Part shown: one piece after another, positions 14,992 through 35,722 of the stretch | How positions within the stretch are numbered: the stretch's first letter is position 1 | How the letters are laid out: each line of letters opens with the position of its first letter | Origin: an uncultured Clostridia bacterium | GTDB taxonomy: Bacteria; Bacillota; Clostridia; TANB77; CAG-508 | Direction of reading: 5' to 3' | Length of the DNA stretch: 64,000 bases | NCBI GenBank assembly: GCA_944387495.1 | Contig: CALXFD010000004.1 | Span: 6,798-70,797 of the forward strand | Program-made: the position numbers and the translations under genes | Notes under the pieces: generated by a model | Databases searched by the model: none | What the model saw: the letters and a program-made list of their open reading frames with translations, nothing else | Told to the model about the DNA's origin: nothing

Positions 14992-15008
14992 CTCATAACC
15001 CGAAGGTC
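14992..15008 (+). repeat. att core, left copy
   Basis: CTCATAACCCGAAGGTC, identical to 35706-35722. Confidence 0.8.
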
Positions 15009-15036
15009 GTAAGTTCGAGTCTTACCCCCGCAACCA
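14992..15036 (+). pseudogene. orphan 3' half of an initiator tRNA-Met (anticodon loop to CCA), no 5' half
   Basis: 42/45 identity to the reverse complement of 10767-10811; two of the three differences are compensatory in the T stem (gcaag/cttgc to gtaag/cttac); followed by hairpin atcacta..tagtgat plus T-run. Confidence 0.8.
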
Positions 15037-15130
15037 AAGTATGTATCACTAGAACTGTAAAGGTTTTAGTGATTTTTTATTGCTTAAAAATTGGTTGCAA
15101 TAATGCTTGAAAATGGCATTATTATGTCAA

Positions 15131-15153
15131 ATTGGGTAAAAATTGGGTAAAAT
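15131..15153 (+). repeat. arm-type repeat (left), candidate Int/Xis binding site
   Basis: ATTGGGTAAAAATTGGGTAAAAT identical to 35565-35587; both followed by CTCAAA..ATGCCC. Confidence 0.6.
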
Positions 15154-15292
15154 AACCACCTCAAATGCCCGAAATTCTAATAAAAATTCAATAAAAAATT
15201 TGCTAAAAATTTATAATTTTTATAAAAATCTACAAGTAAAAAACTTTTGGGAAAGAGATATAAAATCTCAAAGTTTTTTACTTTTTATATCG

Positions 15293-15319
15293 TGAAAATT
15301 TGTAATTTGTGAAAATTAG
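15293..15319 (-). repeat. inverted sub-terminal repeat (left)
   Basis: Reverse complement CTAATTTTCACAAATTACAAA matches 35668-35689 with one indel. Confidence 0.5.
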
Positions 15320-15331
15320 AAAAAAGTAAAA

Positions 15332-16525
15332 TTAAGACCTTGTTGGTAATAGTAAGTTTTCTAGTGCATATCCAGCTTTTCTATTATGAGAAAGTAGTGG
15401 ATGTACATAAAAGTCAAGTGTTGTACTTATTTGCGCATGACCAAGTCTTGCTGAAACAACAGCTATATCAACATTTTGTGCAACTAGTAAACTTGCATTT
15501 GTATGTCTTAATCCGTGAAAATTAATTACAGGTAGTCCTATTGTACCTACATATTTAACAAACCATTTACTTATAGAAGAAGGATGCATAGGTTTGCCAT
15601 CAGCTTGTACAAATAACCTATCAGAATTCGTCCATAATTCGCCATATAGCGATTTTTGATCTTCATACCATAACTTATATTCCTCAAGCAAAGAAATGAT
15701 AAATTCGGGTATTGCAATCTCTCTAATGGAGCTTTCTGTTTTAGGAACTTTTGTAAATACTCCCATATCTGATAGATACTGACTAGAACGGTTAATACTT
15801 ATAATTCCATTTCTAAAATCAACATCTTGCCATTCTAATCCCATTAATTCACCTAAACGAACACCAGTAAAGATAGTAAGAATGATAGCAACTTTGTATT
15901 TAGTATCTTCTATTGTAAGTTTTTCTAAGTTTTCTAACAATATTTTAGTTTGCTCATCATCATAAGATCTTCTTTTAGGTTTTTTAGCTCTAGGTGGTTG
16001 AACACGTTCAGCAGGATTGCTTACAATTAATTGCCAGTAAACTGCTCTATGAAGCATTGCTCTTAATAGTCTGTGATGTTCTAAAATAGTTTTACCAGAT
16101 AAAGGCTTTTTAGTTTTTGAACCATTGTTACCTTTTTTTCTAACTAATTGAGTATCTCTTTCAAGTAAGTCATAGAATTTCATAATATCAGTTGGTCTTA
16201 TTTTGTTAATATAGAAATGTCCGAAATATGGTAAAATTCTTGTTTCTAACATTCTACAATATCGTTTGTATGTTGTAGGAGCTAGTTCTTTTGAACCATA
16301 ATCTCTTTTCCATAATTCAACAAATTCAGAAAATTTAAGAGATTTACCATCTATGACTAAACAGTTTTGTACTTCAGTAACAAATTTTGCTAGTTCAACT
16401 TCTGCTTCTTTTTTAGTTCCATGAATAGTTTTTCTGTGTATCATGGGCCTTCCACTTAGGTCAAATCCTTCTGATACTGTTAACCTGTAACTATTTTTTC
16501 CTCTTTTTTCTATACTCCCAGCCAT
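15332..16525 (-). CDS. int: phage-type tyrosine integrase
   Basis: Catalytic signature FTGVRLGEL .. HGLRHTNASLL .. LGHAQISTTLDFYVH (R-HxxR-Y); N-terminal SAM-like core-binding domain; adjacent to att. Confidence 0.9.
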   Translation of the reverse strand: MAGSIEKRGKNSYRLTVSEGFDLSGRPMIHRKTIHGTKKEAEVELAKFVTEVQNCLVIDGKSLKFSEFVELWKRDYGSKELAPTTYKRYCRMLETRILPYFGHFYINKIRPTDIMKFYDLLERDTQLVRKKGNNGSKTKKPLSGKTILEHHRLLRAMLHRAVYWQLIVSNPAERVQPPRAKKPKRRSYDDEQTKILLENLEKLTIEDTKYKVAIILTIFTGVRLGELMGLEWQDVDFRNGIISINRSSQYLSDMGVFTKVPKTESSIREIAIPEFIISLLEEYKLWYEDQKSLYGELWTNSDRLFVQADGKPMHPSSISKWFVKYVGTIGLPVINFHGLRHTNASLLVAQNVDIAVVSARLGHAQISTTLDFYVHPLLSHNRKAGYALENLLLPTRS

Positions 16526-16806
16526 TACTTATTTCACCTCCTTTCAAGTATAACTATGGAAGGGAGAGTATTTATGTGTATTATATAGTATTTTTTGATA
16601 AATTACCAGCTATTTTTGCTTATTTTTAGCTACTTTCAAAGATTACAATAAAATTCATAAAAGAATATATGAAAAACATAAAGGAACTAAAAGAAATGTA
16701 ATAAAAAATTAATAAGATATGGTAAAATCATAATTTTTATGATAGAATACAAGACAAATGCACTAAAGAACAAAATAAAAAATAATGCTTAGCGTAAGGG
16801 ATAGAA

Positions 16807-18093
16807 ATGAATAAGAAAAGAAAGAATAGAATTAGAAAATTTGGAATAAATAAAACAAATAAAATAATGAGACAAAGGCATCGAGAAAAGTACCACCATA
16901 TAAAGGGGGTTAAAACTGGAAAAAATGCGAAGAAAAGATATATTCCTAATAAAGTTGTTAAATTATTAGATTTAAAAAAGTTTTATCATAAAATAGAAAG
17001 AAATAAAAATACTGTTATTATAGAAATTCCACTTAGATTTTCCTTAATTACAAATCCAGAAGAATCGTTAAAAACTTTAAAGAAAATATTTACAGCTATA
17101 CATGATGAAAAAGTACAAGAATTATTTTTGGATTATTCAAAATGTGAAGAATTGGGCTTATGTGCTTCTTCAGTAACAGATATAATTATACTTAATGGTT
17201 ATAAATATAGAAGAATATTAAATAAGCCTTTAAATACAAGAGGAAATGTTCCAAAATCCAATGAAGCCAAAGAAATTTTTATAATAAGTGGATTAGTAAA
17301 GCATTTAGGAATTTCAAAAATAGAAAATATAAATACTGTTAGATTAGATATAATACAGAATCAGGAACAATCAAAAATGACAGATGAAATTATTCAATAC
17401 TATGATAAATGTTTAAATACCCAAAATTATCAACTGACGGTACAAGGAAAAAGTAAATTTGCACATATGATAGGTGAAGTTTTAGATAATGTAAGTCAAC
17501 ATGCAGGTGAATTAGCCACTTGGTATGCATCGGGTCACTTTAACATAGATAAAGATAGAAAAGATGGCAAATGTAGATTAGTATTATTTGATTTTGGAGA
17601 TAGTATTTATGAAGGATTAAATAGAGAAGATACTACAGAATATACAAAAAAACTATTAAAAAATAAAACAAAAGAGCATTATAATATATTTAACAAAAAA
17701 TGGAACGAAGAACCTTTATGGATGCTATATGTTTTACAATATAATGTTAGTAGAAAAAGAGTAGATGTGAATGATGATAGAGGAAAAGGAACTATAAAAT
17801 TAATAAATAATTTTATGCATATTGGAAAAAATATGGAGGGCAATAATCCGATAATGGCAATAATAAGTGGAAATGGTTATATTTTATTTGATTCAACATA
17901 TACATTAAAAGAAGAAATAGTGAATGGCAAAAAAATACCGATAATAGCATTTAATGAGGAAAATGACTTATCTAAAAAACCAGATAGTAAATATGTAAAA
18001 AGGATAGATGAAAATTTTCCTGGAACTATGATAAGTATGGAATTTTATTTAGATAAAGAATATATAGAAAAGCAGATGGAGGTAAGAATATGA
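16807..18093 (+). CDS. GHKL (SpoIIAB/RsbW-like) ATPase-fold protein with uncharacterised K-rich N-terminal half
   Basis: N box EVLDNVSQHAG, G1-like LFDFGDSIY, G2-like DDRGKGTIKLI in the order expected for anti-sigma-type serine kinases/ATPases. Confidence 0.55.
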   Translation: MNKKRKNRIRKFGINKTNKIMRQRHREKYHHIKGVKTGKNAKKRYIPNKVVKLLDLKKFYHKIERNKNTVIIEIPLRFSLITNPEESLKTLKKIFTAIHDEKVQELFLDYSKCEELGLCASSVTDIIILNGYKYRRILNKPLNTRGNVPKSNEAKEIFIISGLVKHLGISKIENINTVRLDIIQNQEQSKMTDEIIQYYDKCLNTQNYQLTVQGKSKFAHMIGEVLDNVSQHAGELATWYASGHFNIDKDRKDGKCRLVLFDFGDSIYEGLNREDTTEYTKKLLKNKTKEHYNIFNKKWNEEPLWMLYVLQYNVSRKRVDVNDDRGKGTIKLINNFMHIGKNMEGNNPIMAIISGNGYILFDSTYTLKEEIVNGKKIPIIAFNEENDLSKKPDSKYVKRIDENFPGTMISMEFYLDKEYIEKQMEVRI

Positions 18094-18404
18094 AAAACAT
18101 AGATTTAAGTAAGTTAACACAAAATATAAAGGTTATTTCGGGTAGAGATAGAGGAATGGAGCTTAGAGAAAAACTTAAAATAGATGAAAAAGATATAGAT
18201 GAAGAGATTTATGAATTTGAAATAGCACAAGATGTGTATTCTTTTAATTCTTCGTGCTTTTTGGGCTTGTTTAGTGATAGCATAAAAAAATTAGGAGAGA
18301 AAAAATTTAGAGAAAAATACCAATTTAAATGTAGTGAATTAATAAGAATGAATATTGAAGATGGCATAAGAGATGCGGTAAATAAAGCTAATCCATTGGG
18401 GTGA
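18090..18404 (+). CDS. STAS-like small protein (DUF4325-type)
   Basis: ATGA overlap with upstream gene; 104 aa; ISGRDRGMELREKL .. SFNSSCFLGLFSDSI resembles the STAS_2/DUF4325 pattern that pairs with GHKL ATPases. Confidence 0.5.
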   Translation: MKNIDLSKLTQNIKVISGRDRGMELREKLKIDEKDIDEEIYEFEIAQDVYSFNSSCFLGLFSDSIKKLGEKKFREKYQFKCSELIRMNIEDGIRDAVNKANPLG

Positions 18405-18410
18405 TAAAAA

Positions 18411-19022
18411 ATGATAAAGAAAATTTTTATAATTGGTATAATTATAATATTTATGTGTATTGGACAAGTGAATGCTACAAATGAAATTGGTGATAAAATA
18501 GTCATAGATACAACAAGTTGGACAGATGTTTTAGTAATGGCAATAAGTTTTATAAATTTGATATTTATAGTTGCTTTTTATATTAATGATCAAAAAAACA
18601 GAGAAAGTGATCAAAAAATAAATTATAAATTTTTTTGGTACAAAGATTATGTACTAAAAGATGCTATAAATATTATAGAAGAACATATTGATAATTGTAA
18701 AAATATATTAGAAGAATGCAAACGATATAAATTGTCTGGTCCTAATGTAGAAGAATATAGTAGATATTTACAAGAGACAACAATATGGAATTTTAATAAA
18801 TCAAATAATAATACAAAAACAAGATTATCCGAATTGTTGCAAACAATGGGAGGAGATTTATCAGAAGATATTATTGAAGAATTTAGGAATATTCAAGATT
18901 TATTTACTGAAAGAATTCAAAATGTAAATAGTGATATTGATAGTTTATATGGAGAAATAGTAGAAAAGAAACCAAATTTAATGAATACATTATATAAATA
19001 TGGATTAGATATAATAAAATAA
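18411..19022 (+). CDS. two-TM membrane protein with helical cytoplasmic C-domain, unknown function
   Basis: 6 nt after previous stop; hydrophobic IFIIGIIIIFMCIG and VLVMAISFINLIFIVAFYI; remainder charged and helical. Confidence 0.5.
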   Translation: MIKKIFIIGIIIIFMCIGQVNATNEIGDKIVIDTTSWTDVLVMAISFINLIFIVAFYINDQKNRESDQKINYKFFWYKDYVLKDAINIIEEHIDNCKNILEECKRYKLSGPNVEEYSRYLQETTIWNFNKSNNNTKTRLSELLQTMGGDLSEDIIEEFRNIQDLFTERIQNVNSDIDSLYGEIVEKKPNLMNTLYKYGLDIIK

Positions 19023-19051: not shown

Positions 19052-19062
19052 AATTATATATT

Positions 19063-20145
19063 TTAATTTTCTTTAATCCATTCGAGCAATTCTTCTTCTG
19101 AAATTTTATTATTGTTAAATTCCTTTATTTTTTCTTTAGCAAGTTTCTTCCAATTTTCAAAAGCTATTCGAATTTCTTCATCATTAGACCTTTTAACTTG
19201 CATTAATCTTCTTTGATAATTGTTTCTATAAAATTTAATTCCTTCAATAGTATTTCTCTTTTTAGAATAAGAATTATTAGCACCAATCATTTTACAAGTT
19301 ACTTCATTTTCACAATATACAATATCACAATATTTTTCAGTATTTCTAAGTGGAATAAAATATTTACCACAGTTCTTACAAACTTTAATTCTTATACTAG
19401 TATTAGAAGCTATTTCAAATAAAGAAATATACAGTATATTGGATAAATATGATGTATGAAAAATAGGACTATCACCTATATTTATTATTCCATTTTCTAA
19501 ATGTTCTCTAACTATTTTAGGTGTTATAGATTGTGAAGCTATATGGTATATATCATGTGCAAATTGTTGGTAATAATATACTTCTATGTTTGTAGAATAT
19601 TTAAATAAGTTATTAAAAATAGAATAAGAAAGATACTTTTCTAAAGGTGTATAATTCTTATCTATTGAATTATTATTTAAATTATACATATAGTCTACGC
19701 ATTGTTTTATCAAATATTGTAATTTCTTTAACTTAGGTTTAACTTTATTAAAAATTGGTTGATAAGTTTCTATAAATTCATCTTCTGTTTTAAAGAATTT
19801 TAATGAAGGAATAGATGCATAAAATTCACATAAAATAGAGAAACCATAAAAACAGAAGAAAGTACGATAAAATGTTTTAAAAGACGCAAAATTCGCATTA
19901 AGAAATTTTATTAAAAAAGTTCCATAACTTTCTTCAAAAGGCTCTAATAAAGTGGCTGAGGAAAAATAAATCTCTTTATCGTTCTTAGAATCATTAAAAA
20001 GTATATTTAAGAATCTATTACTTTTATCATGATAAAAAGTAGTTTTATACAAAGAAATTGAAGTTGTATAAAACTCTTTTCTTTTTTCCCTATTAAACCA
20101 AATGTTAAAGTAATCTTTTATTGGAATATTATCTTCTCTTAACAT
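19063..20145 (-). CDS. zinc-ribbon protein of mobile-element backbone (DUF6076-like by recollection)
   Basis: CKNCGKYFIPLRNTEKYCD..CENEVTC cluster; divergent from xis. Confidence 0.45.
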   Translation of the reverse strand: MLREDNIPIKDYFNIWFNREKRKEFYTTSISLYKTTFYHDKSNRFLNILFNDSKNDKEIYFSSATLLEPFEESYGTFLIKFLNANFASFKTFYRTFFCFYGFSILCEFYASIPSLKFFKTEDEFIETYQPIFNKVKPKLKKLQYLIKQCVDYMYNLNNNSIDKNYTPLEKYLSYSIFNNLFKYSTNIEVYYYQQFAHDIYHIASQSITPKIVREHLENGIINIGDSPIFHTSYLSNILYISLFEIASNTSIRIKVCKNCGKYFIPLRNTEKYCDIVYCENEVTCKMIGANNSYSKKRNTIEGIKFYRNNYQRRLMQVKRSNDEEIRIAFENWKKLAKEKIKEFNNNKISEEELLEWIKEN

Positions 20146-20415
20146 ATAAACACCTCAAAATATAAATTGCAATACATATTATAAAATAAAATTGCTAACA
20201 AAGTATCTTAATTATACAAAAATATAGTGAAAAATGCAATAAAAATTACAAATCAAAAACCATATAACTATTGAAAACACTATAAAAGAAGAAAATAAAA
20301 TAAAAAAATTAAAAAGTTTTAAAAAATAGCACAAGATTTTATGGTTGTACTGAGCTTTATAGTAGAAGGGAGGGAGAAAATGAATTTTTAAACGATAAAG
20401 AGAGGAGGAAGCATT

Positions 20416-20613
20416 ATGATGAATAATCAAATTCAAAGAACTACACTAACAATGAAAGAAGCATCAGAGTATTTGGGTATTTCATATTGGTTAATTAATC
20501 AACTGGTAAGGAAAAAACAAATTCCGTACTGTAAAGTTGGTGGAAAATATTTATTTAGAGTACAAGCACTAGACGAATATTTAAGAAATATGGAATTACA
20601 ATCTATGCTTTAA
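20416..20613 (+). CDS. xis: excisionase-family helix-turn-helix DNA-binding protein
   Basis: LTMKEASEYLGISYWLINQLVRKKQIPYCKVGGKYLFRVQALDEYL matches MerR-like excisionase HTH pattern; GAGGAGGA RBS. Confidence 0.75.
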   Translation: MMNNQIQRTTLTMKEASEYLGISYWLINQLVRKKQIPYCKVGGKYLFRVQALDEYLRNMELQSML

Positions 20614-20641: not shown

Positions 20642-21154
20642 ATGTATAAGTTACAATGGTTAAAAATTGATGCAAATTTATTTGCAAATAGGAAAATTCT
20701 AATATTACTTAAAGAACCTGATGGAGATACATATATTAGAGTCTGGATACAATTATTAATTATTGCTATGGAATGTAATAAAGAAGGAAATTTAGTAATA
20801 GGTGAGAATAAACCAATGACAATTGGATATTTTTCAAAGATTATGGGAAAGTCTTTTGAAAAAATGGAAGAAATAATTAAAAAATTTTTAGAATTAGAAA
20901 TGATAATTCTAGAAAATGAAGTTTACAAAATTAAAAATTGGAATAAATATCAAAGTATTGAAACATATGAAAAATATAAAGAACAAGGAAGATTAAGGCA
21001 ACAAAGATATCGTGAAAAATTAAAAAGTGAAAATGGAAAAAGTAACGTTACAGTAACGTTATGTAACGGAGAAGAAGAGAATAAAGAAAATAAAAGAAAA
21101 GAAATAAGAAAGGAAGAAGAGAACACAAATGGATTTAGAAAATACGAAATGTAA
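20642..21154 (+). CDS. phage replisome-organizer N-terminal-domain protein
   Basis: WLKIDANLFANRKILILLKEPDGDTYIRVWIQLLIIA typical of the replisome organizer family; precedes a DnaC-like loader. Confidence 0.6.
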   Translation: MYKLQWLKIDANLFANRKILILLKEPDGDTYIRVWIQLLIIAMECNKEGNLVIGENKPMTIGYFSKIMGKSFEKMEEIIKKFLELEMIILENEVYKIKNWNKYQSIETYEKYKEQGRLRQQRYREKLKSENGKSNVTVTLCNGEEENKENKRKEIRKEEENTNGFRKYEM

Positions 21155-21965
21155 TTCTAAAGAGGAGATTTTCCACAATAAATGCAAATTTTGTGGAAAA
21201 GATTTAAAAGCAATAGGCTTAGATTATTTATATGCAAATATACCATTAAGTTCAATAGAATATGAAAGATGCGATTGTAAACAGTCAAAGGATTATTGGG
21301 AAGAAGTAGATTTAAAAGAAGAAAAACAAAAGAAAAGGAAACAATTTGAGCAAATGACTAGACAATTTTATATACAAAATTATATTAACAAACGAATACA
21401 AGATTATCAATTTGAAAACTTTATAATAACAGAAATCAATAAGAAAGAAGTAGAAATTGCAAAAGATTTTACAGAAAAATGTATTAATAAAAATCAAAAA
21501 AATGGGCTTATTATTACTGGAAAATCAGGAACTGGAAAGACACATTTAGCAACAGCTATTTTAAATAAACTAACTGAAAAAGATATATTAGTTTTAATGG
21601 GAAGACTAATTGTATTGCTGGATGTAATTAAAGATACTTTTAAAGATTTTTCTAGTAAAGAAAAAGACATAATAGAATTGTATTCTAAAGTTGATATGCT
21701 TATAATTGATGATTTAGGAACAGAAAGAATTAGAAGTTGGGCACTAGAAAAATTATATACAATTATAGAAAATAGAAATGAAAATAAATTACCAATTATA
21801 GTAACAACTAGATTTAATAAAGAAAGCTTACTAGATAGATTTTGTCAAAGTGAAGATGAAGAATTATCAGAAGCTGTTATTCAAAAGTTGTATCAATTTT
21901 GTTATGGAATTGAACTGAAAAAGTATGATCAAAATGAAAAAGAAAAAGTTAGCAAAAGCGACTAA
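21129..21965 (+). CDS. DnaC/IstB-like AAA+ helicase-loader ATPase
   Basis: Walker A GKSGTGKTHLATAI, Walker B MLIIDDLGTE; N-terminal Cys cluster CKFCG..CDC; overlaps upstream gene. Confidence 0.8.
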   Translation: MDLENTKCNSKEEIFHNKCKFCGKDLKAIGLDYLYANIPLSSIEYERCDCKQSKDYWEEVDLKEEKQKKRKQFEQMTRQFYIQNYINKRIQDYQFENFIITEINKKEVEIAKDFTEKCINKNQKNGLIITGKSGTGKTHLATAILNKLTEKDILVLMGRLIVLLDVIKDTFKDFSSKEKDIIELYSKVDMLIIDDLGTERIRSWALEKLYTIIENRNENKLPIIVTTRFNKESLLDRFCQSEDEELSEAVIQKLYQFCYGIELKKYDQNEKEKVSKSD

Positions 21966-22126
21966 ACTAAATACTAACTTAATCCAAAAACTAAAATTAT
22001 TATAAAATATTTATAAACAAAAGTAAAGAGTATTTTAAACTAAAAAAGTTTAAATATTTTAGAAAATTTTTAATACAAAAGAAGAAAAGTGATATAAAAA
22101 ATATCCCTCGGAGAGCAAAAAAGGTT

Positions 22127-22263
22127 TTAGGGCATTTTGCCCTAAGCAGCTAAAACGGTGTCAAAACACCATGCTGGCGAATATTAGGTACTAAAAAATA
22201 CTACCCAATATTCGAGCAAAATAAATTTTGCAAATTCTTAATGCTACGTAAACTAGCATTAAG
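22127..22263 (+). other. four consecutive stem-loops (candidate ori/sso or structured RNA)
   Basis: ttagggc..gccctaa (22127-22145); ggtg..cacc (22157-22170); cgaatattaggta..tacccaatattcg (22178-22214); cttaatgcta..tagcattaag (22237-22263). Confidence 0.35.
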
Positions 22264-22282
22264 AAATTTTTATATATAGGAA

Positions 22283-22915
22283 GTGAAAAAAATGTATGTT
22301 AATTCGGAACAGGCGTTAGATAGTGTTTTCTTATCATACGATAAAATATTAAAGAAATTACATCTACTTGGATTAACTACTAAAAAAGGTAAAGAAATAA
22401 CAGAATTAGATTTAAGAAAAGCAATAGATGTTATGTTAGAAAAGCATCCAACTTGTAGATGGAGAAGTGAGAAAATAAAAAGCAGAAAATATTTTATTTT
22501 GACTGAAGGATATTATTGGTTATTAAATGTATATTTTCAAAAAGAAAAATCATTAATTGATGCAGATATAGATTTTTTTGAAGATAGAATTAAACAATAT
22601 GAGGAACTATTAAAAGTGGAGAATAATCAAAATTGGTGGAATAAAAACATGGATATAAAACAACTATGCAAATATTTTGATAGAAAAGAAATTACGATAA
22701 GAAAATCAATTAAGAAAATGTGTGATAGTGGATTTGAACAGTATAAATTTTTAATTAATAACAAAGTTGTTATTTCTAGTAAAGGTATTGAATGGCTAAG
22801 TAAAAATGTTTTTAAACAAAAATATTTAGAACTATTGGAAAAATATAAGATGGAGTTAACAGAGTTATATATTGAAAAAGGATATATTTATGATGAGTAT
22901 TTTGGAAGAAATTAA
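22283..22915 (+). CDS. hypothetical protein upstream of hsdR (start GTG 22283 or ATG 22292)
   Basis: Clean 210-aa ORF with normal composition; no motif recognised. Confidence 0.5.
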   Translation: MKKMYVNSEQALDSVFLSYDKILKKLHLLGLTTKKGKEITELDLRKAIDVMLEKHPTCRWRSEKIKSRKYFILTEGYYWLLNVYFQKEKSLIDADIDFFEDRIKQYEELLKVENNQNWWNKNMDIKQLCKYFDRKEITIRKSIKKMCDSGFEQYKFLINNKVVISSKGIEWLSKNVFKQKYLELLEKYKMELTELYIEKGYIYDEYFGRN

Positions 22916-25380: not shown

Positions 25381-25391
25381 GAGAAAGAATA

Positions 25392-26879: not shown

Positions 26880-28480
26880 TGACTGCTCAAGAATTAAAAA
26901 ATTCAATTCTTCAATTAGCAATACAAGGAAAATTAGTAAAGCAAGATCCGAATGATGAACCAGCAACTGTATTGCTTGAAAAAATAAAAGAAGAACGTAA
27001 AAAATTAATCAAAGAAAAGAAAATAAAAAAAGAAAAATACTCAGAAATATATAAAGATCCTTCAGATAATCATTATTATGAGAAGTTTGAAGATGGTACT
27101 ATAAATGATATCACAGAAGAAATTCCTTTTGATATTCCTGATACTTGGAAATGGGTTAGATTAAAGAATATTGCAAGATTATTTTCTGGGTATGCTTTTA
27201 AGGGACAAGATTTGACAGATACAAAACAAGTAAGAGTAATTAGAATATCAGACTTTGATGACAATAGATTAAAAAATAACAAAATTGTAAGAATAGATGA
27301 AAATAAAATTTATGATAAATTTATTATAGAAAATAATAGTATTTTATTAGCGATGACAGGTGGAACTGTCGGAAAAAGTATTTTGTTAAAAAATATTAAA
27401 GAAAAAATGTATTTAAACCAACGTATTGTGTCTATTAGTCAATTGTATTCTTTTATATGCATTGATTATTTAGATCTTAACATCCAATCACCATATATAC
27501 AGCAACTCATAAATGATAATAAAAATTCAACTAATGATAATATTTCTATGAATTTAATTAATAACTTTTTAATACCATTACCGCCATTTAATGAACAACA
27601 ACAAATCATAAATAAGATAGAAAACGTTTTACCATATATTGAAAAATATAATTTTGTATATAGTAAATTAACAAGATTAAACAATTCATATAAAGAAGAA
27701 TTAAAAAAATCAATCCTACAATATGCAATACAAGGGAAATTAGTACAACAAGATCAAAATGATGAACCAGCAGATATTTTAATTAATAAAATTCTAAGCG
27801 AAAAACGTGAATTAATTAAATCTAAACAAATTAAAAAAGAAAATTTATCTGTAATTTATAAAAATAATACAGATAATCAATTTTATGAGAAGTTTGATGA
27901 TGGTACTATTAAAAATATTACAGAAGAAATACCTTTTGAAATTCCAGATAATTGGGCTTGGACTAGACTTGAAAATCTAACAACCAAACAAATAAAAAGG
28001 GGAAAATCACCTAAATATATTAATAAGAGCAATGTATATGTCTTTTCACAAAAATGTAATCAGAAAGATGGAATAATTTCATTAGAACAGTCTAAATTTT
28101 TAGATGAAAAGACTTTAAAGAAATATGATGATACAGATTACATAATTAAATCGGATATTGTTATAAATTCAACTGGTAATGGCACCTTAGGTAGAATAGG
28201 AATTATAAAAGATAGAAATATATATTCCAATAAAGTTGTTACTGATTCTCATGTTACTTTGGTACGAGTATTTGATGAGATAGAAGCTGATTACATATTC
28301 TACTTTTTAAAATGTAATCAAAAATATTTAGAATTGAAAGCAACCGGATCAACAAATCAAACAGAATTAAGCCCCGAAGTAATAAAAAAAATGATGGTTC
28401 CTTTACCTAATAATATAGAGCAACAAAAAATTAAAAACAAAATAGAAAAAATATTTAACACGATAAAAACAGCTGAATAG
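26879..28480 (+). CDS. hsdS: type I R-M specificity subunit (expressed copy; two TRDs, each preceded by a conserved region)
   Basis: TAATG overlap with hsdM; repeated conserved segments ILQ.AIQGKLV.QD.NDEPA .. YEKF.DGTI..ITEEIPF.IPD.W.W. Confidence 0.9.
   Translation: MTAQELKNSILQLAIQGKLVKQDPNDEPATVLLEKIKEERKKLIKEKKIKKEKYSEIYKDPSDNHYYEKFEDGTINDITEEIPFDIPDTWKWVRLKNIARLFSGYAFKGQDLTDTKQVRVIRISDFDDNRLKNNKIVRIDENKIYDKFIIENNSILLAMTGGTVGKSILLKNIKEKMYLNQRIVSISQLYSFICIDYLDLNIQSPYIQQLINDNKNSTNDNISMNLINNFLIPLPPFNEQQQIINKIENVLPYIEKYNFVYSKLTRLNNSYKEELKKSILQYAIQGKLVQQDQNDEPADILINKILSEKRELIKSKQIKKENLSVIYKNNTDNQFYEKFDDGTIKNITEEIPFEIPDNWAWTRLENLTTKQIKRGKSPKYINKSNVYVFSQKCNQKDGIISLEQSKFLDEKTLKKYDDTDYIIKSDIVINSTGNGTLGRIGIIKDRNIYSNKVVTDSHVTLVRVFDEIEADYIFYFLKCNQKYLELKATGSTNQTELSPEVIKKMMVPLPNNIEQQKIKNKIEKIFNTIKTAE
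27063..27154 (+). repeat. hsdS inversion repeat IR1 (plus copy)
   Basis: 92 bp, perfect reverse complement of 30633-30724. Confidence 0.85.
27717..27967 (+). repeat. hsdS inversion repeat IR2 (plus copy)
   Basis: ~251 bp, identical as far as checked by eye to the reverse complement of 29820-30070. Confidence 0.85.
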
Positions 28481-28492
28481 ACAGCTGTTTTT

Positions 28493-29296
28493 TTACCAAT
28501 CAATTATTTTGTTTACAATTTCTTGCTGCTCTGTACTAGTTCTTCTTAAATATATTCTAGTTGTTTCGATACTTTCGTGCCCCATCAAATCTGCTAAAAG
28601 CGATATATCATTAAATCTATCTAAAAAACTCTTAGCAAATCTATGTCTAAAAGAATGAGGATATATTACTTTTGGATTTAAGCCATATTTTATACCAAGT
28701 TTTTTTAATTCTCCGCTAATTCCCCTAGCTGTTATACGGTTTCCATATTTATTTTTAAATATAAAGCCTTCTGTAAGATTACTTTTATCAAACCATGATA
28801 AAGCTTCTTTTTGTAGTTTTTCCGGTATATATATTCTTCTTAATTTTCCACCCTTAGAATATAAATCAAAATATCCTATCTTTACATGTTCAACCTTAAA
28901 CTGAATTAATTCACTAATTCTAGCACCAGTTGCTGTAATAAATCTTATAACAAAATACCAATACATTTCTTTATCATTTTTTAGACATTTTTTAAAATAT
29001 TCATAATCAGCTTCACTTATAACATTTTCCAAAAAGTTCTTTTGTTGCAATTTTAGTAATGGTAGCCTTAAATGGTCTTTTTTTAAATATTTTAAGTAAG
29101 TATTTATTGCTTGAATTCTTAAATTTACAGTCTTAATTTTATAATTTTCAACTAGAAATGTTTTATATGCTTGTAAATTTTTTTTATTAATTATTAAATA
29201 TTTTGATTGGTATTGATTAACTGTAAATAAGTAAGACTTAATAGTATTTTGTGAAAGATTTCTTTTCCTTAAATATTCTTCAAAACTGAATGCCAT
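28493..29296 (-). CDS. tyrosine site-specific recombinase (hsdS shufflon invertase)
   Basis: TGARISEL .. HSFRHRFAKSF .. LMGHESIETTRIYL (R-HxxR-Y); located between the inverted hsdS copies. Confidence 0.85.
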   Translation of the reverse strand: MAFSFEEYLRKRNLSQNTIKSYLFTVNQYQSKYLIINKKNLQAYKTFLVENYKIKTVNLRIQAINTYLKYLKKDHLRLPLLKLQQKNFLENVISEADYEYFKKCLKNDKEMYWYFVIRFITATGARISELIQFKVEHVKIGYFDLYSKGGKLRRIYIPEKLQKEALSWFDKSNLTEGFIFKNKYGNRITARGISGELKKLGIKYGLNPKVIYPHSFRHRFAKSFLDRFNDISLLADLMGHESIETTRIYLRRTSTEQQEIVNKIIDW

Positions 29297-29333
29297 ACTG
29301 AAACCCTCCTTTCCAATATGGCATTATATAAAA

Positions 29334-30724
29334 TTATATTATTGAAAACAAAGTATTGAGCTTTTTTGTGATTTTTAATTGTTCGTTATGAGGCGGAATT
29401 GCTATTAATGTTTTAGCTATGTCTTTCATAACCCAATTTTTATTTCCAACCCCTTTTGTATTTTCTTTACATTGTTTTTGAACCAGTGGCGATAAGATTA
29501 AATTTTTTAAATATTCCCTATCTATATATTCATTATTGAATTTTAATAAAGCTAGACTAACAAATAAGCTAAATTCTATGTCGGTTTCTACTATAACAGG
29601 TATTCCTGTTGTTCCGACTTTACTTAAAATAATGTCTCCTTTCTGAGGATTACATCTTTGAAATAATATTTTGTGTTCTTCTTTTGTAATGTGCTTTGTA
29701 TTGTCTAATTTTAATGTTCCAGAACTTATATCTTTAACAGAAATAAAAGGAACACCATTTTCTACATATTTAGGAGTTTTATGCGTTCCATCAGTTAATT
29801 TTGTTAAAATATTTACTATTCTAGTCCAAGCCCAATTATCTGGAATTTCAAAAGGTATTTCTTCTGTAATATTTTTAATAGTACCATCATCAAACTTCTC
29901 ATAAAATTGATTATCTGTATTATTTTTATAAATTACAGATAAATTTTCTTTTTTAATTTGTTTAGATTTAATTAATTCACGTTTTTCGCTTAGAATTTTA
30001 TTAATTAAAATATCTGCTGGTTCATCATTTTGATCTTGTTGTACTAATTTCCCTTGTATTGCATATTGCAATATTGATTTCTTTAAATCTTCTTTATAAT
30101 TATTATTTATTTTTTCTAATCGCTCATATATATCATCATATCTGCTTATATATGGCAATAAATTTTCATATTTTTCTATAATACGTTGTTGTTCTTTTAG
30201 TGGTGGTATAGGAATTAAGAATTTTTTTAACCACCCAGTATTTAAATTTTTCTGAGCAGCTCCTTTTACATTTCTATTTATTTGTTCCTGAAAAAGTAAA
30301 GATTCCATCCATAATACAATATAGTGTTTATTCATTATATCTAAATGGTCTCTGAAAAATCCTAAACTCACAAAAATACAAAATTCTTCATCTGTTTCAA
30401 TTATTTGAGGTTTACCCATAGTTCCAACTCTACCAAACAATATGTCACCTTTATGTGGTTTACTACCATAAGAAGCTTTGTCATATGTTTCTCGACTTAC
30501 CTTTTTAGCTTTTGAAAAATCAATTTTTCCACCAGAAATATCTTTTACAGATAAGAAATATACTCCTTCGCTTGTATAATCTGGTTTATATGTAAAACCT
30601 AAATTTATTTCTTCAAAATTTTCAATTCTACACCATTTCCAAGTATCAGGAATATCAAAAGGAATTTCTTCTGTGATATCATTTATAGTACCATCTTCAA
30701 ACTTCTCATAATAATGATTATCTG
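29334..30724 (-). CDS. hsdS: silent, 5'-truncated alternative hsdS cassette (two different TRDs, no start or promoter of its own)
   Basis: Frame stays open upstream of the listed ORF through 30724, where homology to active hsdS residue ~62 begins; TRDs differ from the active copy. Confidence 0.8.
29820..30070 (-). repeat. hsdS inversion repeat IR2 (minus copy)
   Basis: Inverted copy of 27717-27967; the encoded 90 aa are identical in both ORFs. Confidence 0.85.
30633..30724 (-). repeat. hsdS inversion repeat IR1 (minus copy)
   Basis: Perfect inverted copy of 27063-27154. Confidence 0.85.
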
Positions 30725-30782: not shown

Positions 30783-31556
30783 ATGTCAAATTTAAAAGCA
30801 GCAGATATACTTATAATTCAAAAGATGATAGAAAAGAAAACAAAGGATAAAGGATTAGTATGGGATTTTACTAATGCTTCATTTAATGACTTTGTAGAAT
30901 CATATACTGGATTAGATATATATGATGACAAATATATTGCAGAAGATGGTGGTTCAAAAATGAAACGTTTAAAAATGTTCTTAAAAGTAGAAGAAAACAC
31001 CTATGTAATAATGTTGCTACAAGGAATTAGTGAGTATGGTAAAAAGAGAAAGTATCTTTGTAAAAGCAATATAGAAGAATTAGAAAGATATATAAGAAAA
31101 TTGAAAAAACTTGAAAAAAATTTAAAATTTGACAAAAGTATATTTAAGAGTGAAAAAAGAGTAGAATTATTAATAAATGATATAAATGAAAAAGTGGCAA
31201 AAAAGCAATTTGAACTAGCAATAGATAGAGTTCATACATTTTTTAAAGGATATATAGAAATAATATGTGAAAGTAAAGGAATCAGCATACATGATAAATC
31301 ATTAGATGCTTTATATGGTGAATTGCTGAAATATATTCATGATAATGAGATTATAGAAGAGGGAGTTACTAAAGACATATTATCATCTTCAAAAAAAATA
31401 ATGAAAAGTTTTGATTATGCTAGAAACAATAGGTCTTTTGCACATACAAATGATATAATGAAACAAAATGAAGCAGAATTTCTATGCTTGTATATTATAG
31501 ATTTGTATAAATTTTTAAGTAAAATTAACTTGGAGAAAGATAGCTCAATTGAATAA
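30783..31556 (+). CDS. Abi_C/HEPN-like protein (candidate abortive-infection effector)
   Basis: C-terminal FDYARNNRSFAHTND carries an Rx4-6H HEPN-type motif in a helical context; GGAGGAAG RBS. Confidence 0.5.
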   Translation: MSNLKAADILIIQKMIEKKTKDKGLVWDFTNASFNDFVESYTGLDIYDDKYIAEDGGSKMKRLKMFLKVEENTYVIMLLQGISEYGKKRKYLCKSNIEELERYIRKLKKLEKNLKFDKSIFKSEKRVELLINDINEKVAKKQFELAIDRVHTFFKGYIEIICESKGISIHDKSLDALYGELLKYIHDNEIIEEGVTKDILSSSKKIMKSFDYARNNRSFAHTNDIMKQNEAEFLCLYIIDLYKFLSKINLEKDSSIE

Positions 31557-31717: not shown

Positions 31718-32611
31718 ATGATATTAAAAGAGAATAATGAATTAAAACAAAAAGATTTTAAGAATGAAAAAGAATTACAGATATTTTTTGAAAGAAATAT
31801 TGAAACTATATTGGGTTATAAACTTATTGATACTGAATTTTCAGTAGGAAATTTTAGAATTGATTCATTGGCTTTTGATGAAGAGACTAAATCATTCAGA
31901 ATAATTGAATACAAGAATGTGAGAAATGCTTCTTTAGTTGACCAAGGGTATACATATTTAAAATTGATGCTTGAAAGAAAAGCAGATTTTGTACTTCAAT
32001 ATAATATAAAGACTAAATTATCTTTAACTATTAAAGACATTGATTGGAGCCAATCAAGAATCATATTTGTTTCACCAATATTTACGGTATATCAATTAAA
32101 TGCTACGGATTTTAAAAATATTCCAGTGGATTTAGTAAAGGTAACAAGATATGAAGAAAATATTGTAGAAATTGATTTTATAAAAAAGATGAGTAATGTA
32201 AAAATACAAGATATCCAAACTGATTCGATACAAAATGAAGTTAATAATGAAATTATTGTATATACCGAAGAAGAGCATTTATCTAAAGTCTCAGAGAATA
32301 TAAGAAATATATATGAAAAACTAAAAAATAGAATATTAGAATTAGATGATATAGATGTTGAAGCCAAGAAATTATATATAGCATTTAAAGGATCAAGAAA
32401 TATTACAGATATAGAATTTCATAAAAACAAATTAAAAATTTATATAAATATGAAAAAAGACAGTTTAAATGATCCTTTAAAGATAGCTAAGGATATAAGT
32501 AACAAAGGACATTGGGGTAATGGAGACTATTGTGTTGAAATAAACAATGAAGATGATATAGATAATATTATTCCATTAATAAAACAATCTTTAAAATTAA
32601 ATAAAAAATAG
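31718..32611 (+). CDS. PD-(D/E)xK nuclease-fold N-domain protein with C-terminal DUF5655-like domain
   Basis: RIDSLAFDEETKSFRIIEYK fits D..(D/E)xK; C-terminal assignment is only from recollection. Confidence 0.45.
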   Translation: MILKENNELKQKDFKNEKELQIFFERNIETILGYKLIDTEFSVGNFRIDSLAFDEETKSFRIIEYKNVRNASLVDQGYTYLKLMLERKADFVLQYNIKTKLSLTIKDIDWSQSRIIFVSPIFTVYQLNATDFKNIPVDLVKVTRYEENIVEIDFIKKMSNVKIQDIQTDSIQNEVNNEIIVYTEEEHLSKVSENIRNIYEKLKNRILELDDIDVEAKKLYIAFKGSRNITDIEFHKNKLKIYINMKKDSLNDPLKIAKDISNKGHWGNGDYCVEINNEDDIDNIIPLIKQSLKLNKK

Positions 32612-32731
32612 ATAAAATAAAGCAAGATTTTTGCTTCTATTATGGAAATTATGGGAAACATTATTTTAAAAACTTTCTTTTTTGGAAATAATATGGTATA
32701 ATATATTATAGAGAAAAGGAGAGTTTTTATT

Positions 32732-33655
32732 ATGTTAGGAGAAAAAATTAAAAAATATAGAGAAGAAAAGAAAATGACTCAAGTAGAAGTTGCAGACGTA
32801 TTAGGAGTAAAACCAGCTACAATATCTAAATACGAGGCTGGAACTTTAGAGCCTAATATTGAGTCATTAAAAAAGTTAGCTGAATTATTTGAAGTTTCAG
32901 TTGATGAATTATTAAAAGAAGATGAATTTGATGTTTCTAAAATTAATGTATTAGAAGTATTAAGAGAGCAAAAAAAAATGAAACTAAAAGGGAACTTGTA
33001 TCATAATACACAGATAATTTTTGCGTATAATACAAATCACATTGAAGGAAGCAAACTAACAGAAGATCAAACAAGATACATTTATGAAACAAATACTTTA
33101 TTAACAGAAAAAGAATCAATTACAAATTTAGATGATATTATTGAAACTGCCAATCATTTTAAATTAGTTGATTATATGTTAGATGTAGCTGATAAAGAGC
33201 TAACAGAAGAAATGATTAAAGAATTTCATAAAATATTGAAAGAGGGAACATCAGATAGTAGAAAAGACTGGTTTAATGTTGGTGATTATAAGAAGTTGGC
33301 AAATGAAGCAGGAAATATGAAAACGACATTACCTAAAAATGTACAAAAAGATATGGTAAAACTAATGCAATGGTATAATTCATTAGGAAAAGTAACGATA
33401 GAAGATATAATAGAATTTCATTATAGGTTTGAATGTATTCATCCATTTCAAGATGGAAATGGTAGAGTAGGTAGAATTATAATGTTTAAGGAATGCTTAA
33501 AAAACAATATTATTCCATTTATTATATTAGATAAATATAAATTATTTTACTATAGGGGATTAAGAGAATATAAGACTGAAAAAGGTTACTTAATAGATAC
33601 TTGTTTAAATGCACAAGATCAATATACAGAAATGATTAAATATTTTTTGAGATAA
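32732..33655 (+). CDS. XRE-HTH plus Fic-domain protein (AMPylase family)
   Basis: N-terminal HTH MTQVEVADVLGVKPATISKYEAG; Fic motif HPFQDGNGRVGR. Confidence 0.85.
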   Translation: MLGEKIKKYREEKKMTQVEVADVLGVKPATISKYEAGTLEPNIESLKKLAELFEVSVDELLKEDEFDVSKINVLEVLREQKKMKLKGNLYHNTQIIFAYNTNHIEGSKLTEDQTRYIYETNTLLTEKESITNLDDIIETANHFKLVDYMLDVADKELTEEMIKEFHKILKEGTSDSRKDWFNVGDYKKLANEAGNMKTTLPKNVQKDMVKLMQWYNSLGKVTIEDIIEFHYRFECIHPFQDGNGRVGRIIMFKECLKNNIIPFIILDKYKLFYYRGLREYKTEKGYLIDTCLNAQDQYTEMIKYFLR

Positions 33656-33675
33656 TTATTAAAAGGAGAAGAGTT

Positions 33676-35097
33676 ATGAATGATTTAATAGTTTTAAATA
33701 ATAATGATATAGCAAAGAATTTAACAGAATATGATGAGAAAATGTTAAATATATATAATTATCTAGGTTTGCCAACAGAAAATATACTAGTTGGTGTTGA
33801 GGAAAGAAAAAAAGTTTTTAAGAATATTGAAGATGTAGTTGACCTATTAGAGCCAGATATTGCTATAAAATCCACTTATATATCAAAGTTTTTATCTGCA
33901 GTAAGTGCCGGATTATTTGATGCTGCATTAAATTATTTGTGGGATGAAACTGTTAACCAATTGAGATACAGAATAGCTCAATATGATATACAATATTTTT
34001 TCGATTTAGCAGTGACATCGGATAAAAGAAATAAATTATCAACGGAAGCTGATTTAGTAAAGATAGATGATAGCGAATTAATACAAGGAGCAAAAGAAAT
34101 AGGATTAATATCTGACATAGGATATCGCATGCTAGATAATATAAAATTTATGAGAAACTGGGCAAGTGCAGCTCATCCTAATCAAGTAGAGTTAACAGGT
34201 CTTCAATTAATTTCATGGCTTGAAACATGTATAAAAGAAGTAATATCATTACCATTATCTAATATTAGTATTGAGATTAGAAAACTTCTCTATAATATAA
34301 AAAATAATGAAATAACTGACACAGAAGCAGAAATAATAAGTGAATTTTTTGGAGATTTAACATTTGATAAAGCAGATTCACTTTGTAATGGATTTTTTGG
34401 AATATATTGTAGAGAAGATACGACTATTGAAACAAGAAGAAATATAAAGATGTTATTGCCAAAACTATGGAATATAGTTTCAGAGGAAAATAAATGGAAT
34501 TTAGGTATTAAGTTTGGTAAGTTTCAGGTAAATAACGATCAAAATGAAGCAAAATTGGCTAGAGAATTTTTACAAATTGTAGATGCAGAGTCATATTTGC
34601 CAGAAAATATAAAAGTTGCCGAATTAAAAATTGAATTAGAACATTTATACATAGCACATAATGCACCGATGAATAATTTTTATTTGGAACCTCCATATGC
34701 AGAGCATATAAAAAGGCTGTTAGGAAATAATTCAGTTCCTGCTCCTATAAATGATTATTACATAAAAGTTATAATAGATGCATTTTTAACTAATGGAAAT
34801 GGTATATGTTGGGGAGCAGATACAATTTATAGAGAGTTAATAAATAAATTTTCACAAAGACAGTTTTTGTTAGCAGTTACTTCTTTTTCAACTGATAAAA
34901 TATCCAGTAAACTACAGTTTACTTTATGCGTAAAGCAGTATAAAGAGCTATTAAAGATAGCAAAAGAAAATGTAACTTCACCATTATTTATTGAATTAAT
35001 AAATGAATTAGAGGGTTACAATAGTAGCTTACCTGAGTTGAGAAAAAATGAAAAGCTTATGCAAAAAATTCAACATTTAAGAAATATTATTAAATAG
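33676..35097 (+). CDS. 473-aa protein of unknown function with HEPN-like RNxxSxAH motif
   Basis: 20 nt after the Fic stop with AGGAGAAG RBS; KFMRNWASAAHPN shares the signature RNxxSxAH with 30783-31556. Confidence 0.45.
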   Translation: MNDLIVLNNNDIAKNLTEYDEKMLNIYNYLGLPTENILVGVEERKKVFKNIEDVVDLLEPDIAIKSTYISKFLSAVSAGLFDAALNYLWDETVNQLRYRIAQYDIQYFFDLAVTSDKRNKLSTEADLVKIDDSELIQGAKEIGLISDIGYRMLDNIKFMRNWASAAHPNQVELTGLQLISWLETCIKEVISLPLSNISIEIRKLLYNIKNNEITDTEAEIISEFFGDLTFDKADSLCNGFFGIYCREDTTIETRRNIKMLLPKLWNIVSEENKWNLGIKFGKFQVNNDQNEAKLAREFLQIVDAESYLPENIKVAELKIELEHLYIAHNAPMNNFYLEPPYAEHIKRLLGNNSVPAPINDYYIKVIIDAFLTNGNGICWGADTIYRELINKFSQRQFLLAVTSFSTDKISSKLQFTLCVKQYKELLKIAKENVTSPLFIELINELEGYNSSLPELRKNEKLMQKIQHLRNIIK

Positions 35098-35136
35098 AAA
35101 AATTAATTTTTCACTAATTTGAAAAAAGTACCTAAA

Positions 35137-35176
35137 AATCCAAAGTTTTTTCAAAATTTTGAAAAAACTTTGGATT
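35137..35176. terminator. long perfect palindrome, bidirectional terminator
   Basis: aatccaaagttttttcaaaa / ttttgaaaaaactttggatt, 20-bp arms. Confidence 0.65.
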
Positions 35177-35187
35177 AATTTTAACTA

Positions 35188-35478
35188 TTAATCAATACAA
35201 CCAATAATCAATTCAACTCCATCACAAAAGCCATTCCTATAATACTTCTCATTCCAATAAACAATATAATCTAAAAAGCTAGAATTAAGCAATTCAAGTT
35301 GCTTTTCTACAAATTTTCTATTCTGTTTAGGAATACTATTTAAAATCTTCTCAGAAATTTCATCAAATTTAACAGTATGTTTTCTATCTTCATCATTAAC
35401 AAAAGCAAGATTTGTTTCCTCTCTAAAATCTAACCAATCTTTTAAAATATCATCATTAACTTCTCTAAAATTATTCAT
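35188..35478 (-). CDS. small hypothetical protein at the island's right end
   Basis: GGAGGA RBS; 96 aa with normal composition. Confidence 0.5.
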   Translation of the reverse strand: MNNFREVNDDILKDWLDFREETNLAFVNDEDRKHTVKFDEISEKILNSIPKQNRKFVEKQLELLNSSFLDYIVYWNEKYYRNGFCDGVELIIGCID

Positions 35479-35564
35479 AATCTAAATCCTCCAAAATTAA
35501 AATTTTTATCAATAAAAATATTCTTTATAAGAGCCCAAACTCTAAGAACAAATGTACTACACCT

Positions 35565-35587
35565 ATTGGGTAAAAATTGGGTAAAAT
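35565..35587 (+). repeat. arm-type repeat (right)
   Basis: Identical 23-mer to 15131-15153, 118 bp inside the right core. Confidence 0.6.
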
Positions 35588-35667
35588 TTTCTCAAAAAAT
35601 GCCCTAAAAATGCACAAATGTTCTGTAAAGCAAAACTCTCGTAAATAGCTAAATACCAACAAAAACT

Positions 35668-35689
35668 CTAATTTTCACAAACTTACAAA
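35668..35689 (+). repeat. inverted sub-terminal repeat (right)
   Basis: CTAATTTTCACAAACTTACAAA, 16 bp before the right core. Confidence 0.5.
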
Positions 35690-35705
35690 AAAGGCCTAAG
35701 TCTTG

Positions 35706-35722
35706 CTCATAACCCGAAGGTC
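35706..35722 (+). repeat. att core, right copy
   Basis: CTCATAACCCGAAGGTC; the next 11 nt (aaaattcaaat) match the tRNA T-arm at 6/11, with 4 of 5 differences G-to-A. Confidence 0.8.

Follow-up and report, generated by a model that had tools for sequence, protein, structure and literature searches.

Tycheposons and marine virion-encapsidated integrative elements carry a tyrosine recombinase, a replication module and cargo, use tRNA sites, and occur in tandem arrays with partial tRNA remnants. Phage-inducible chromosomal islands (PICIs), which include the SaPIs and islands of other Gram-positive bacteria, have five core parts: an integrase, a regulation module (alpA, merR or stl homologue), a primase-replicase, a small terminase and a capsid-morphogenesis gene (PMC10085698). 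Integrative mobilisable elements (IMEs) of Firmicutes, such as Tn6104 and the streptococcal elements, include some with replisome organiser/DnaC modules (PMC5704250). In gut Clostridia, accretion and cis-mobilisable elements have been described whose remnants persist between copies, and some of these elements consist only of a recombinase and cargo (PMC12084326). The present analysis concerns a 20.7-kb island at positions 14992-35722 of a 64,000-nt stretch (the window) of contig CALXFD010000004.1, derived from an uncultured Clostridia bacterium. We conclude, with a probability of about 0.72, that the island is an active integrative element belonging to a widespread, undescribed family of low-GC gut Clostridia.

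The island is delimited by exact copies of a 17-bp core, CTCATAACCCGAAGGTC, located on the plus strand at 14992-15008 and 35706-35722. A third copy with one mismatch is found on the minus strand at 10795-10811. These three are the only copies in the whole 1.53-Mb assembly and none was expected by chance (0 of 100 shuffled controls contained copies). ARAGORN detected a single tRNA in the window (10767-10842, minus strand), which was identified as the initiator tRNA-fMet by its C1:A72 mismatch and GGG/CCC anticodon stem, and which shares the CAT anticodon with just one other tRNA of the assembly. Within the tRNA-fMet sequence, the 17-mer starts at the anticodon loop, takes in the 3' anticodon stem and reaches the variable loop. 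The features of the two ends and of the tRNA gene are the following.

10767..10842, minus strand: intact initiator tRNA-fMet, unoccupied primary attachment site (ARAGORN); core variant CTCATAACCCaAAGGTC, T-arm GCAAG/CTTGC
14992..15008, plus strand: left copy of the 17-bp core (attL core); exact match, identity to other hosts ends here
15009..15038, plus strand: island-borne tRNA-fMet 3' rest (T-arm and acceptor strand); inverted-repeat evidence, same 45-mer in phage attP sites
15045..15073, plus strand: terminator hairpin directly 3' of the tRNA 3' rest; equivalent hairpin in relatives
15131..15153, plus strand: P' arm, tandem 11-mer ATTGGGTAAAA x2, candidate arm-type site of the integrase (Int); exact repeat
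15293..15319, plus strand: P' arm, GTGAAAA repeats, inverted relative to 35668-35689; conserved in relatives
35565..35587, plus strand: P arm, same tandem 11-mer; exact repeat
35668..35689, plus strand: P arm, inverted GTGAAAA motif, read from the sequence
35706..35722, plus strand: right copy of the 17-bp core (attR core), followed by non-tRNA DNA; exact match, identity with nine contigs ends at 35721/35722

The left core together with the tRNA 3' rest (14992-15038, 47 nt, 94% identity in the inverted-repeat search) matches the tRNA-fMet gene at 42 of 45 positions, and the 3' rest differs from the real gene by a compensatory change in the T-stem. In canonical integration the tRNA would be rebuilt by the island-borne 3' rest, and at the island junctions of two related genomes (G024 and G010) the tRNA-fMet gene was found rebuilt intact. 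The island thus has the attP with a tRNA 3' part that is typical of islands integrating into tRNA genes (14992-15038 plus the terminator, and the G024 and G010 junctions), but the window copy does not reside in a tRNA gene. ARAGORN found no intact tRNA at either junction in the window, no tRNA 5' half precedes the left core, and the right core is followed by unrelated DNA instead of the tRNA 3' rest, indicating that the island bears the 3' half of a tRNA yet lies outside any tRNA gene. The first-pass annotation had called the island tRNA-associated; this holds for its attachment sequence, which is part of the initiator tRNA-fMet, but not for its insertion site.

Between the ends, the 23-mer ATTGGGTAAAAATTGGGTAAAAT occurs in exact form at 15131 and 35565. 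It is a tandem repeat of the 11-mer ATTGGGTAAAA, and the likeness around it extends to 65 nt at 72%. In addition, TTTGTGAAAATTAG at about 15305-15319 pairs with its complement at about 35668-35681. In genomes G002, G003 and G024 and in the int402 variant, the tandem motif covaried with the integrase: it was TTGGGAAAAA at 89% integrase identity, TTGGGGAA at 82% and 75%, and TGGGCAC at 49%. Such a change with the integrase is as expected of arm-type Int sites. Both kinds of repeat that had been proposed as arm sites are therefore present, and they resemble integrase arm sites.

To compare hosts, exact-protein look-ups of the integrase, of a 96-aa gene at the right end and of two flanking genes were performed and yielded about 40 human-gut metagenome contigs; ENA samples in which the island is present include ERZ28615349, ERZ24773382, ERR209806 and ERR4096412. 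Identity to the window stopped at 14990-14992 on the left, as seen in the other-host contigs L073, L075 and L080, and at 35721/35722 on the right, as seen in nine contigs with other right-hand neighbours. The repeats had been taken to mark the limits of a discrete mobile element, and the contig comparison set the same ends independently. On the left, the copies in other hosts were adjoined by a GNAT/PNP locus with tRNA-fMet 2 kb off (L073) or by the right end of another island (L075). On the right, they were followed by the full tRNA 3' rest (L082), by a second island in tandem (L081, L086 and L090), by a Big_2 gene (L083), by a radical-SAM gene (L085 and L088) or by a helicase gene (L089). 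The island sequence was 100% identical over 7534 nt in L073, 99.98% over 5781 nt in L082, 100% over 5074 nt in L085, 99.8% in L083 and 99.93% in L089. In all, it was at least 99.8% identical in at least five host backgrounds, whereas the flanks were 65-81% identical to the island's own genome or mapped to its other contigs. Near-identical islands between diverged flanks indicate recent spread between species, and the earlier description of the island as transfer-deficient is for this reason misleading. The comparison of related genomes suggested in the first-pass annotation thus upheld the exact ends and showed that flanks differ among hosts and cargo among related islands.

Other observations pointed to a mobile family. 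An identical integrase protein was encoded on 13 metagenome contigs. Tandem arrays with related islands were frequent, being present in L081, L086, L090, L091 and L075. In two contigs from the window's own species (L067 and L071) the left flank and core are those of the window, but a different island, which has an arm motif of its own, comes next, indicating that the site is reused. The gene of a 207-aa backbone protein was detected in 34 of 301 species (about 11% of those sampled) and 15 of 43 genera of the order, with identities that did not follow taxonomy. An element-type 44-mer representing the attachment sequence was found in 36 of 101 species of the genus, about one third of those sampled, sometimes as direct pairs 8-19 kb apart.

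The members of the family have the same gene order: int, a first variable slot, the DUF6076 gene on the opposite strand, xis, the replisome organiser, the DnaC-like loader, the 207-aa gene (in close variants), a second variable slot, a 96/97-aa gene, the P arm and the core. The backbone of the window copy consists of the following parts.

15332..16525, minus strand: tyrosine integrase (int), 397 aa; Pfam Phage_integrase 4e-24, Phage_int_SAM_3 1.8e-15
19063..20145, minus strand: DUF6076 protein, 360 aa, four-Cys motif, divergent from xis; PF19553 3.5e-10
20416..20613, plus strand: excisionase/AlpA-type HTH_17 protein (xis); HTH_17 3.7e-12, Tn916-Xis 4.8e-5
20642..21154, plus strand: phage-type replisome organiser; Phage_rep_org_N 1.3e-24, phrog_4880
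21129..21965, plus strand: DnaC/IstB-like helicase loader; IstB_IS21 2.8e-15, Bac_DnaA 1.4e-11
22090..22270, plus strand: conserved hairpin spacer, five hairpins spanning about 170 nt, downstream of the DnaC-like gene and upstream of the 207-aa gene; fold z = -6.3
22292..22915, plus strand: 207-aa backbone protein, tandem winged-helix domains, predicted DNA binding (AlphaFold2, AF2, model)
35188..35478, minus strand: 96-aa backbone gene adjoining the P arm, conserved at the right end with both integrase types

The backbone of int, xis, replisome organiser and DnaC-like loader recognized in the first reading was confirmed by Pfam, and all backbone genes are intact in the window. The DUF6076 protein has four invariant cysteines (C256, C259, C273 and C284). 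Its AF2 model (pLDDT 84.7) had no neighbours in the PDB (E > 0.5), and a role as relaxase, primase or capsid protein was rejected on this ground; no mention of DUF6076 was found in the literature searched. In the int402 variant DUF6076 is fused to HTH_3. This fusion and the divergent position suggest that the protein is a likely repressor, the master regulator of the xis-replication operon. A 74-aa open reading frame at 20212-20436, considered as a split HTH, was judged not to be a gene because its translation is hydrophobic and of low complexity.

The AF2 model of the 207-aa protein (pLDDT 85.2, pTM 0.81) contains two winged-helix units. The fold search returned only winged-helix or excisionase-like domain matches (E > 0.06) and no full-length structural neighbour in the PDB or BFVD, and a small terminase was therefore ruled out. 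There were 2060 homologues; the best 120 of the 2060 were all at least 87% identical. A single distant homologue carries a C-terminal MobC domain, a weak lead. The hairpin spacer upstream was 94% identical among islands whose 207-aa proteins were 91-95% identical, and it matched nothing in Rfam or in the phage and plasmid collections. It may be an origin, an origin of transfer (oriT), a packaging (pac) site or a leader. The spacer was found to be better conserved than the adjacent proteins. The product of the 96-aa gene matched no family in Pfam, PHROGs or NCBIfam. The DUF6076 protein, the 207-aa protein and the hairpin spacer are three backbone parts without known relatives.

Consistent with the statement of the first-pass annotation that virion and transfer genes are absent, no capsid, portal, terminase, tail, lysis, relaxase or coupling protein was detected among the island proteins with Pfam, PHROGs, NCBIfam and PADLOC. 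The check for hidden genes also took in the two confident AF2 models described above. Transfer between cells would depend on another element. Carriage in phage particles, either satellite-like or by co-packaging beside a tandem prophage, is a tentative proposal that falls somewhat short of even odds; conjugative mobilisation, in trans or in cis, is possible but unlikely, and other routes account for the remainder. We have a slight preference for the phage route over conjugation.

According to one interpretation the island is a true PICI-type phage satellite. A helper would lift repression, upon which the island would excise, replicate and be packaged in helper capsids through a cos/pac mimic, a role in which the hairpin spacer and the DNA-binding 207-aa protein might serve. 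Cargo hotspots reported for satellites resemble those of the island and were counted for this interpretation. As in PICIs, the integrase is at one end, a divergent regulator/xis switch is followed by the island's own replication module, here made of phage-type genes, accessory or defence genes are located between int and the regulator and after the replication module, and structural and lysis genes are absent. An integrase (Pfam) and a regulation module (the HTH_17 protein at 20416-20613 and the divergent DUF6076 gene) are present. However, three of the five core components (PMC10085698) are missing: no primase-replicase family was found in Pfam, PHROGs or NCBIfam, no small terminase was matched in the same three collections, the 207-aa candidate being winged-helix only and not terminase-like, and no capsid-morphogenesis gene matched Pfam or PHROGs. 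Whereas PICIs replicate by means of a primase-replicase, the island would use a replisome organiser and a DnaC-like loader, it has no capsid-remodelling or interference genes, and its 20.7 kb also sets it apart. The attachment site, common to temperate phages and prophages, was counted on both sides, in favour of a PICI and as a difference from PICIs. A further difference from PICIs is that no sign of packaging was found for the island.

The phage databases provided evidence in both directions. In one contig of IMG/VR, genes for the small terminase, large terminase, portal, capsid, tape measure and lysin are followed by the core and the island integrase, so that one related island copy (n=1) lies directly after a siphovirus late region. 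This int fragment at the end of a prophage contig was the only match in IMG/VR, where the island did not occur as a contig of its own, and megablast against 50,697 phage records and searches of the plasmid collections gave no match. Temperate phages G042-G044 of IMG/VR use the same site: the exact 45-nt 3' half of tRNA-fMet adjoins their tyrosine integrase, and the block of identity starts at the same base, CTCATAA. Unlike the island, these phages are represented by records of 36-49 kb that CheckV scored as complete, their integrases are only about 30% identical, and the DNA in common with the island, searched for cos/pac sequences, was limited to trivial 50-nt matches. The host assembly, which is 98% complete, had no match to a large terminase or an HK97 capsid. 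Taken together, membership among PICIs appears unlikely, although not strongly so. The satellite-like architecture noticed earlier stands as a resemblance, but membership was not supported, in view of the missing core genes, the absence from cultured-phage records and as an IMG/VR contig of its own, and the attachment site common to temperate phages; "satellite" is an analogy, not a classification.

It is more doubtful that the island is an integrative mobilisable or cis-mobilisable element, that is, a self-excising element moved by a co-resident conjugative element through an oriT in trans or by tandem accretion. An integration and excision module (int and xis) with exact ends is present, and the replisome organiser and DnaC modules are of the kind listed for Firmicutes IMEs (PMC5704250). 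Like Tn6104 and the streptococcal IMEs, the family is integrative and cargo-rich, has maintenance and replication genes of the same kind, and frequently forms tandem composites; unlike them, it lacks a relaxase and combines a tyrosine integrase with a tRNA-derived site, whereas those IMEs encode a relaxase, and their recombinases, mostly of the serine type, target genes of conjugative elements for insertion (PMC5704250). Gut Clostridia commonly contain tandem composites and elements with only a recombinase (PMC12084326). The island resembles these elements in the remnants left between copies, and differs in having a full replication module and in that its partners are related islands and a prophage, none of the tandem partners here being a conjugative element. 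In favour of mobilisation, the host assembly (G000) contains a MobA-type relaxase and a TraG-like coupling protein (C13:43499-43879 and C14:26650-27015), the MobC fusion occurs in the distant 207-aa homologue, and a Mob_Pre module adjoins the island in contig L074. On the other side, Pfam and NCBIfam searches found no relaxase in the island, where the hairpin spacer at 22090-22270 may be an oriT, and no relaxase, coupling protein or recognisable oriT was present in the island or in the six surveyed variants; the MobC link is a single weak homologue. In L074 (7500-13194) the left end of the island was found to be cut inside the tRNA 3' rest. The module adjoining it there comprises a Y1 (IS200-like) transposase, the Mob_Pre relaxase, an rRNA adenine methyltransferase and a double-ABC protein, and looks like a resistance element.

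Less probable still is that the family represents a distinct hitchhiker, neither satellite nor IME, which would insert at the outer att sites of tRNA-fMet prophages and islands or at 17-bp relics and be moved together with them, the spacer and the 207-aa protein forming a new transfer or replication-start module. Such a hitchhiker might travel onward by cis-mobilisation, for instance, or within the headfuls packaged first during in-situ (lateral) packaging. Tycheposon-type elements, some of which were found in particles or vesicles, have hosts and backbone genes different from those of the island, itself observed only at the level of genes. A dead, immobile prophage remnant, made up of an early region and acquired genes, is highly improbable: the order of int, regulator, xis, replisome organiser and DnaC is that of the usual early arm of temperate siphoviruses, but the reading is contradicted by near-identical copies with exact ends in several hosts that are 20-35% divergent, by the intact backbone genes of the window and by the conservation of a family with the same gene order and different cargo. 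No structural, packaging or lysis genes of a prophage were found in the island with Pfam and PHROGs.

The position of the island relative to the tRNA gene was considered separately. The tRNA-fMet gene is unoccupied, lies inverted 4.2 kb from the island, and differs from the island core at position 11, where it has A; both this core and the T-arm, GCAAG, are still its own. In all four hosts with an A-type tRNA (G000, the host of L073, G341 and G293) the tRNA was free and the island was located at a G-type core 2-8.5 kb away, whereas in both hosts with a G-type tRNA (G024 and G010) it was inside the tRNA gene. Right junctions consisting of the P arm, 16-17 nt of the core and unrelated DNA were observed in at least five contexts, and left junctions consisting of unrelated DNA, a perfect core and the tRNA 3' rest in at least six. 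The recurrence of such junctions indicates that the 17-mer behaves as a minimal target; the tRNA-derived core suffices for insertion away from tRNA genes. The simplest account is that the tRNA is the unoccupied primary site and X-core-Z a secondary one, in which the island resides. Most of the data are accommodated by a model in which strands are exchanged close to the 3' end of the core and elements accrete onto the relics of older ones. An origin of the right flank from a decayed or deleted tRNA was tried and set aside, the statistics being marginal, and no degenerate second core was present within five mismatches upstream of the Big_2 gene in the window.

Alternatively, the layout could have arisen by integrase-mediated inversion between the tRNA core and the attL core. 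The inverted 47-nt arms at 10765-10811 and 14992-15038 are in line with such an event, as are the opposite orientation of the tRNA relative to the left-flank genes in G022 and G007 and the location of the Big_2 gene, which is right of the island in G019 and L083 and left of it in the window. If the inversion is undone, however, the tRNA 3' rest is still missing from the right junction, and an inverted tRNA half is left orphaned beside the left flank. The tRNA's own core and T-arm are as expected if the gene had never recombined, and G341 and G293 show this inverted layout too, with a different set of genes separating the tRNA from the island. Moreover, excision from the tRNA and re-insertion at X-core-Z gives the observed order in one step, whereas inversion needs more. 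Inversion is therefore a doubtful explanation. In G341:C8 (L109) and G293:C20 (L110) the intact tRNA-fMet is inverted relative to island junctions 5.5 and 8.5 kb away.

For an active integrative element, the reading that we prefer, the following cycle can be proposed. Int, acting on the 17-bp core and the arm repeats, would recombine a circle carrying P arm, core and tRNA 3' rest with the chromosomal core; Xis would reverse the reaction, and the DUF6076 protein would keep the xis-replication operon off. After excision the replisome organiser and the DnaC-like loader would recruit the host helicase, allowing the circle to replicate. In this genome the island would have bypassed the tRNA gene with its differing core and inserted instead 4.2 kb off, at a secondary site matching all 17 bp; this site is probably what remains of an older element's right end.

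Several points weigh against this reading. We infer excision and replication of the island: neither a circular junction nor an empty site was present among the ENA/Logan contigs retrieved with int, the 96-aa gene and the flanking genes, every same-species contig being occupied, and a P arm plus core query had no match in JGI metagenomes or IMG/VR. No origin, oriT or pac site was identified in the island. The regulatory role of DUF6076 is suggested by position and one HTH fusion, and in L074 the replication genes were called as short fragments, which may reflect decay or a long-read assembly error. The position-11 correlation comes from a small sample of six related genomes. As for the source of the perfect 17-bp sites outside tRNA genes, the right flank resembles a decayed tRNA end, or the DNA natively downstream of the tRNA, only marginally (p 0.01-0.08).

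The backbone is conserved, and the two slots hold exchangeable defence genes. The cargo of the window copy is as follows.

16807..19022, plus strand: slot 1, 428-aa GHKL-like protein with 104-aa and 203-aa proteins, function unassigned; phrog_3364 (function unknown)
23032..30440, plus strand: phase-variable type I restriction-modification (R-M) system with hsdR, hsdM and hsdS, the recombinase and inverted hsdS' being on the minus strand; Pfam, inverted repeats
30783..31556, plus strand: Abi_C-domain protein; Abi_C 8.1e-5, 23.1 bits, below the cut-off of 24
31718..32611, plus strand: DUF5655 protein, defence candidate PDC-S18; Pfam, PADLOC 3.5e-107
32732..33655, plus strand: HTH-Fic protein, defence candidate PDC-S04 (SoFic-like); Pfam, PADLOC 9.3e-110
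33676..35097, plus strand: 473-aa protein, function unassigned; phrog_27609 1.5e-57, function unknown

Much of what had been put forward as candidate defence cargo was borne out: the type I R-M shufflon, PDC-S18 and PDC-S04/Fic were recognized, and the Abi_C match was just under the cut-off. The proteins of slot 1 matched nothing in Pfam, NCBIfam or PADLOC, and inspection of the 428-aa GHKL-like protein revealed an N-box-like motif, GEVLDNVSQHA. In relatives, slot 1 holds a KAP NTPase, a PIN set, a Septu-like ATPase/HNH pair or other genes, and slot 2 a methylase, helicase, MutH, MazG and SLFN set or a kinase/TPR set. Known and unknown systems alike occupy the swap slots (the GHKL three-gene set, KAP NTPase, PIN, Septu-like, Fic and DUF5655), from which candidates for new defence genes could readily be drawn. 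The family is apparently a major and currently active carrier of anti-phage systems in uncultured gut Clostridia. Its transfer mechanism, once worked out, would fill a gap in our understanding of how defence genes circulate in the gut.

In metagenome contig L083 the hsdS region was inverted between the repeats at 27063-27178 and 30610-30724, which is direct evidence that the type I R-M shufflon flips. In L081, L090 and L091 a pair of genes encoding a 75-aa and a 437-aa HTH_38 protein was inserted between Abi_C and the silent hsdS (about 30700 of the window); the pair was read as putatively IS30-like. Outside the island, a 700-aa Eco57I-type methyltransferase gene (11075-13177) lies between the tRNA and the GNAT gene, and it was broken or partly deleted in the same-species contigs L065 and L069. 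Downstream of the island, near a 100-aa gene, comparison of same-species contig L053 (6449-6550) with the window (37064-37118) revealed an insertion or duplication of about 100-150 nt.

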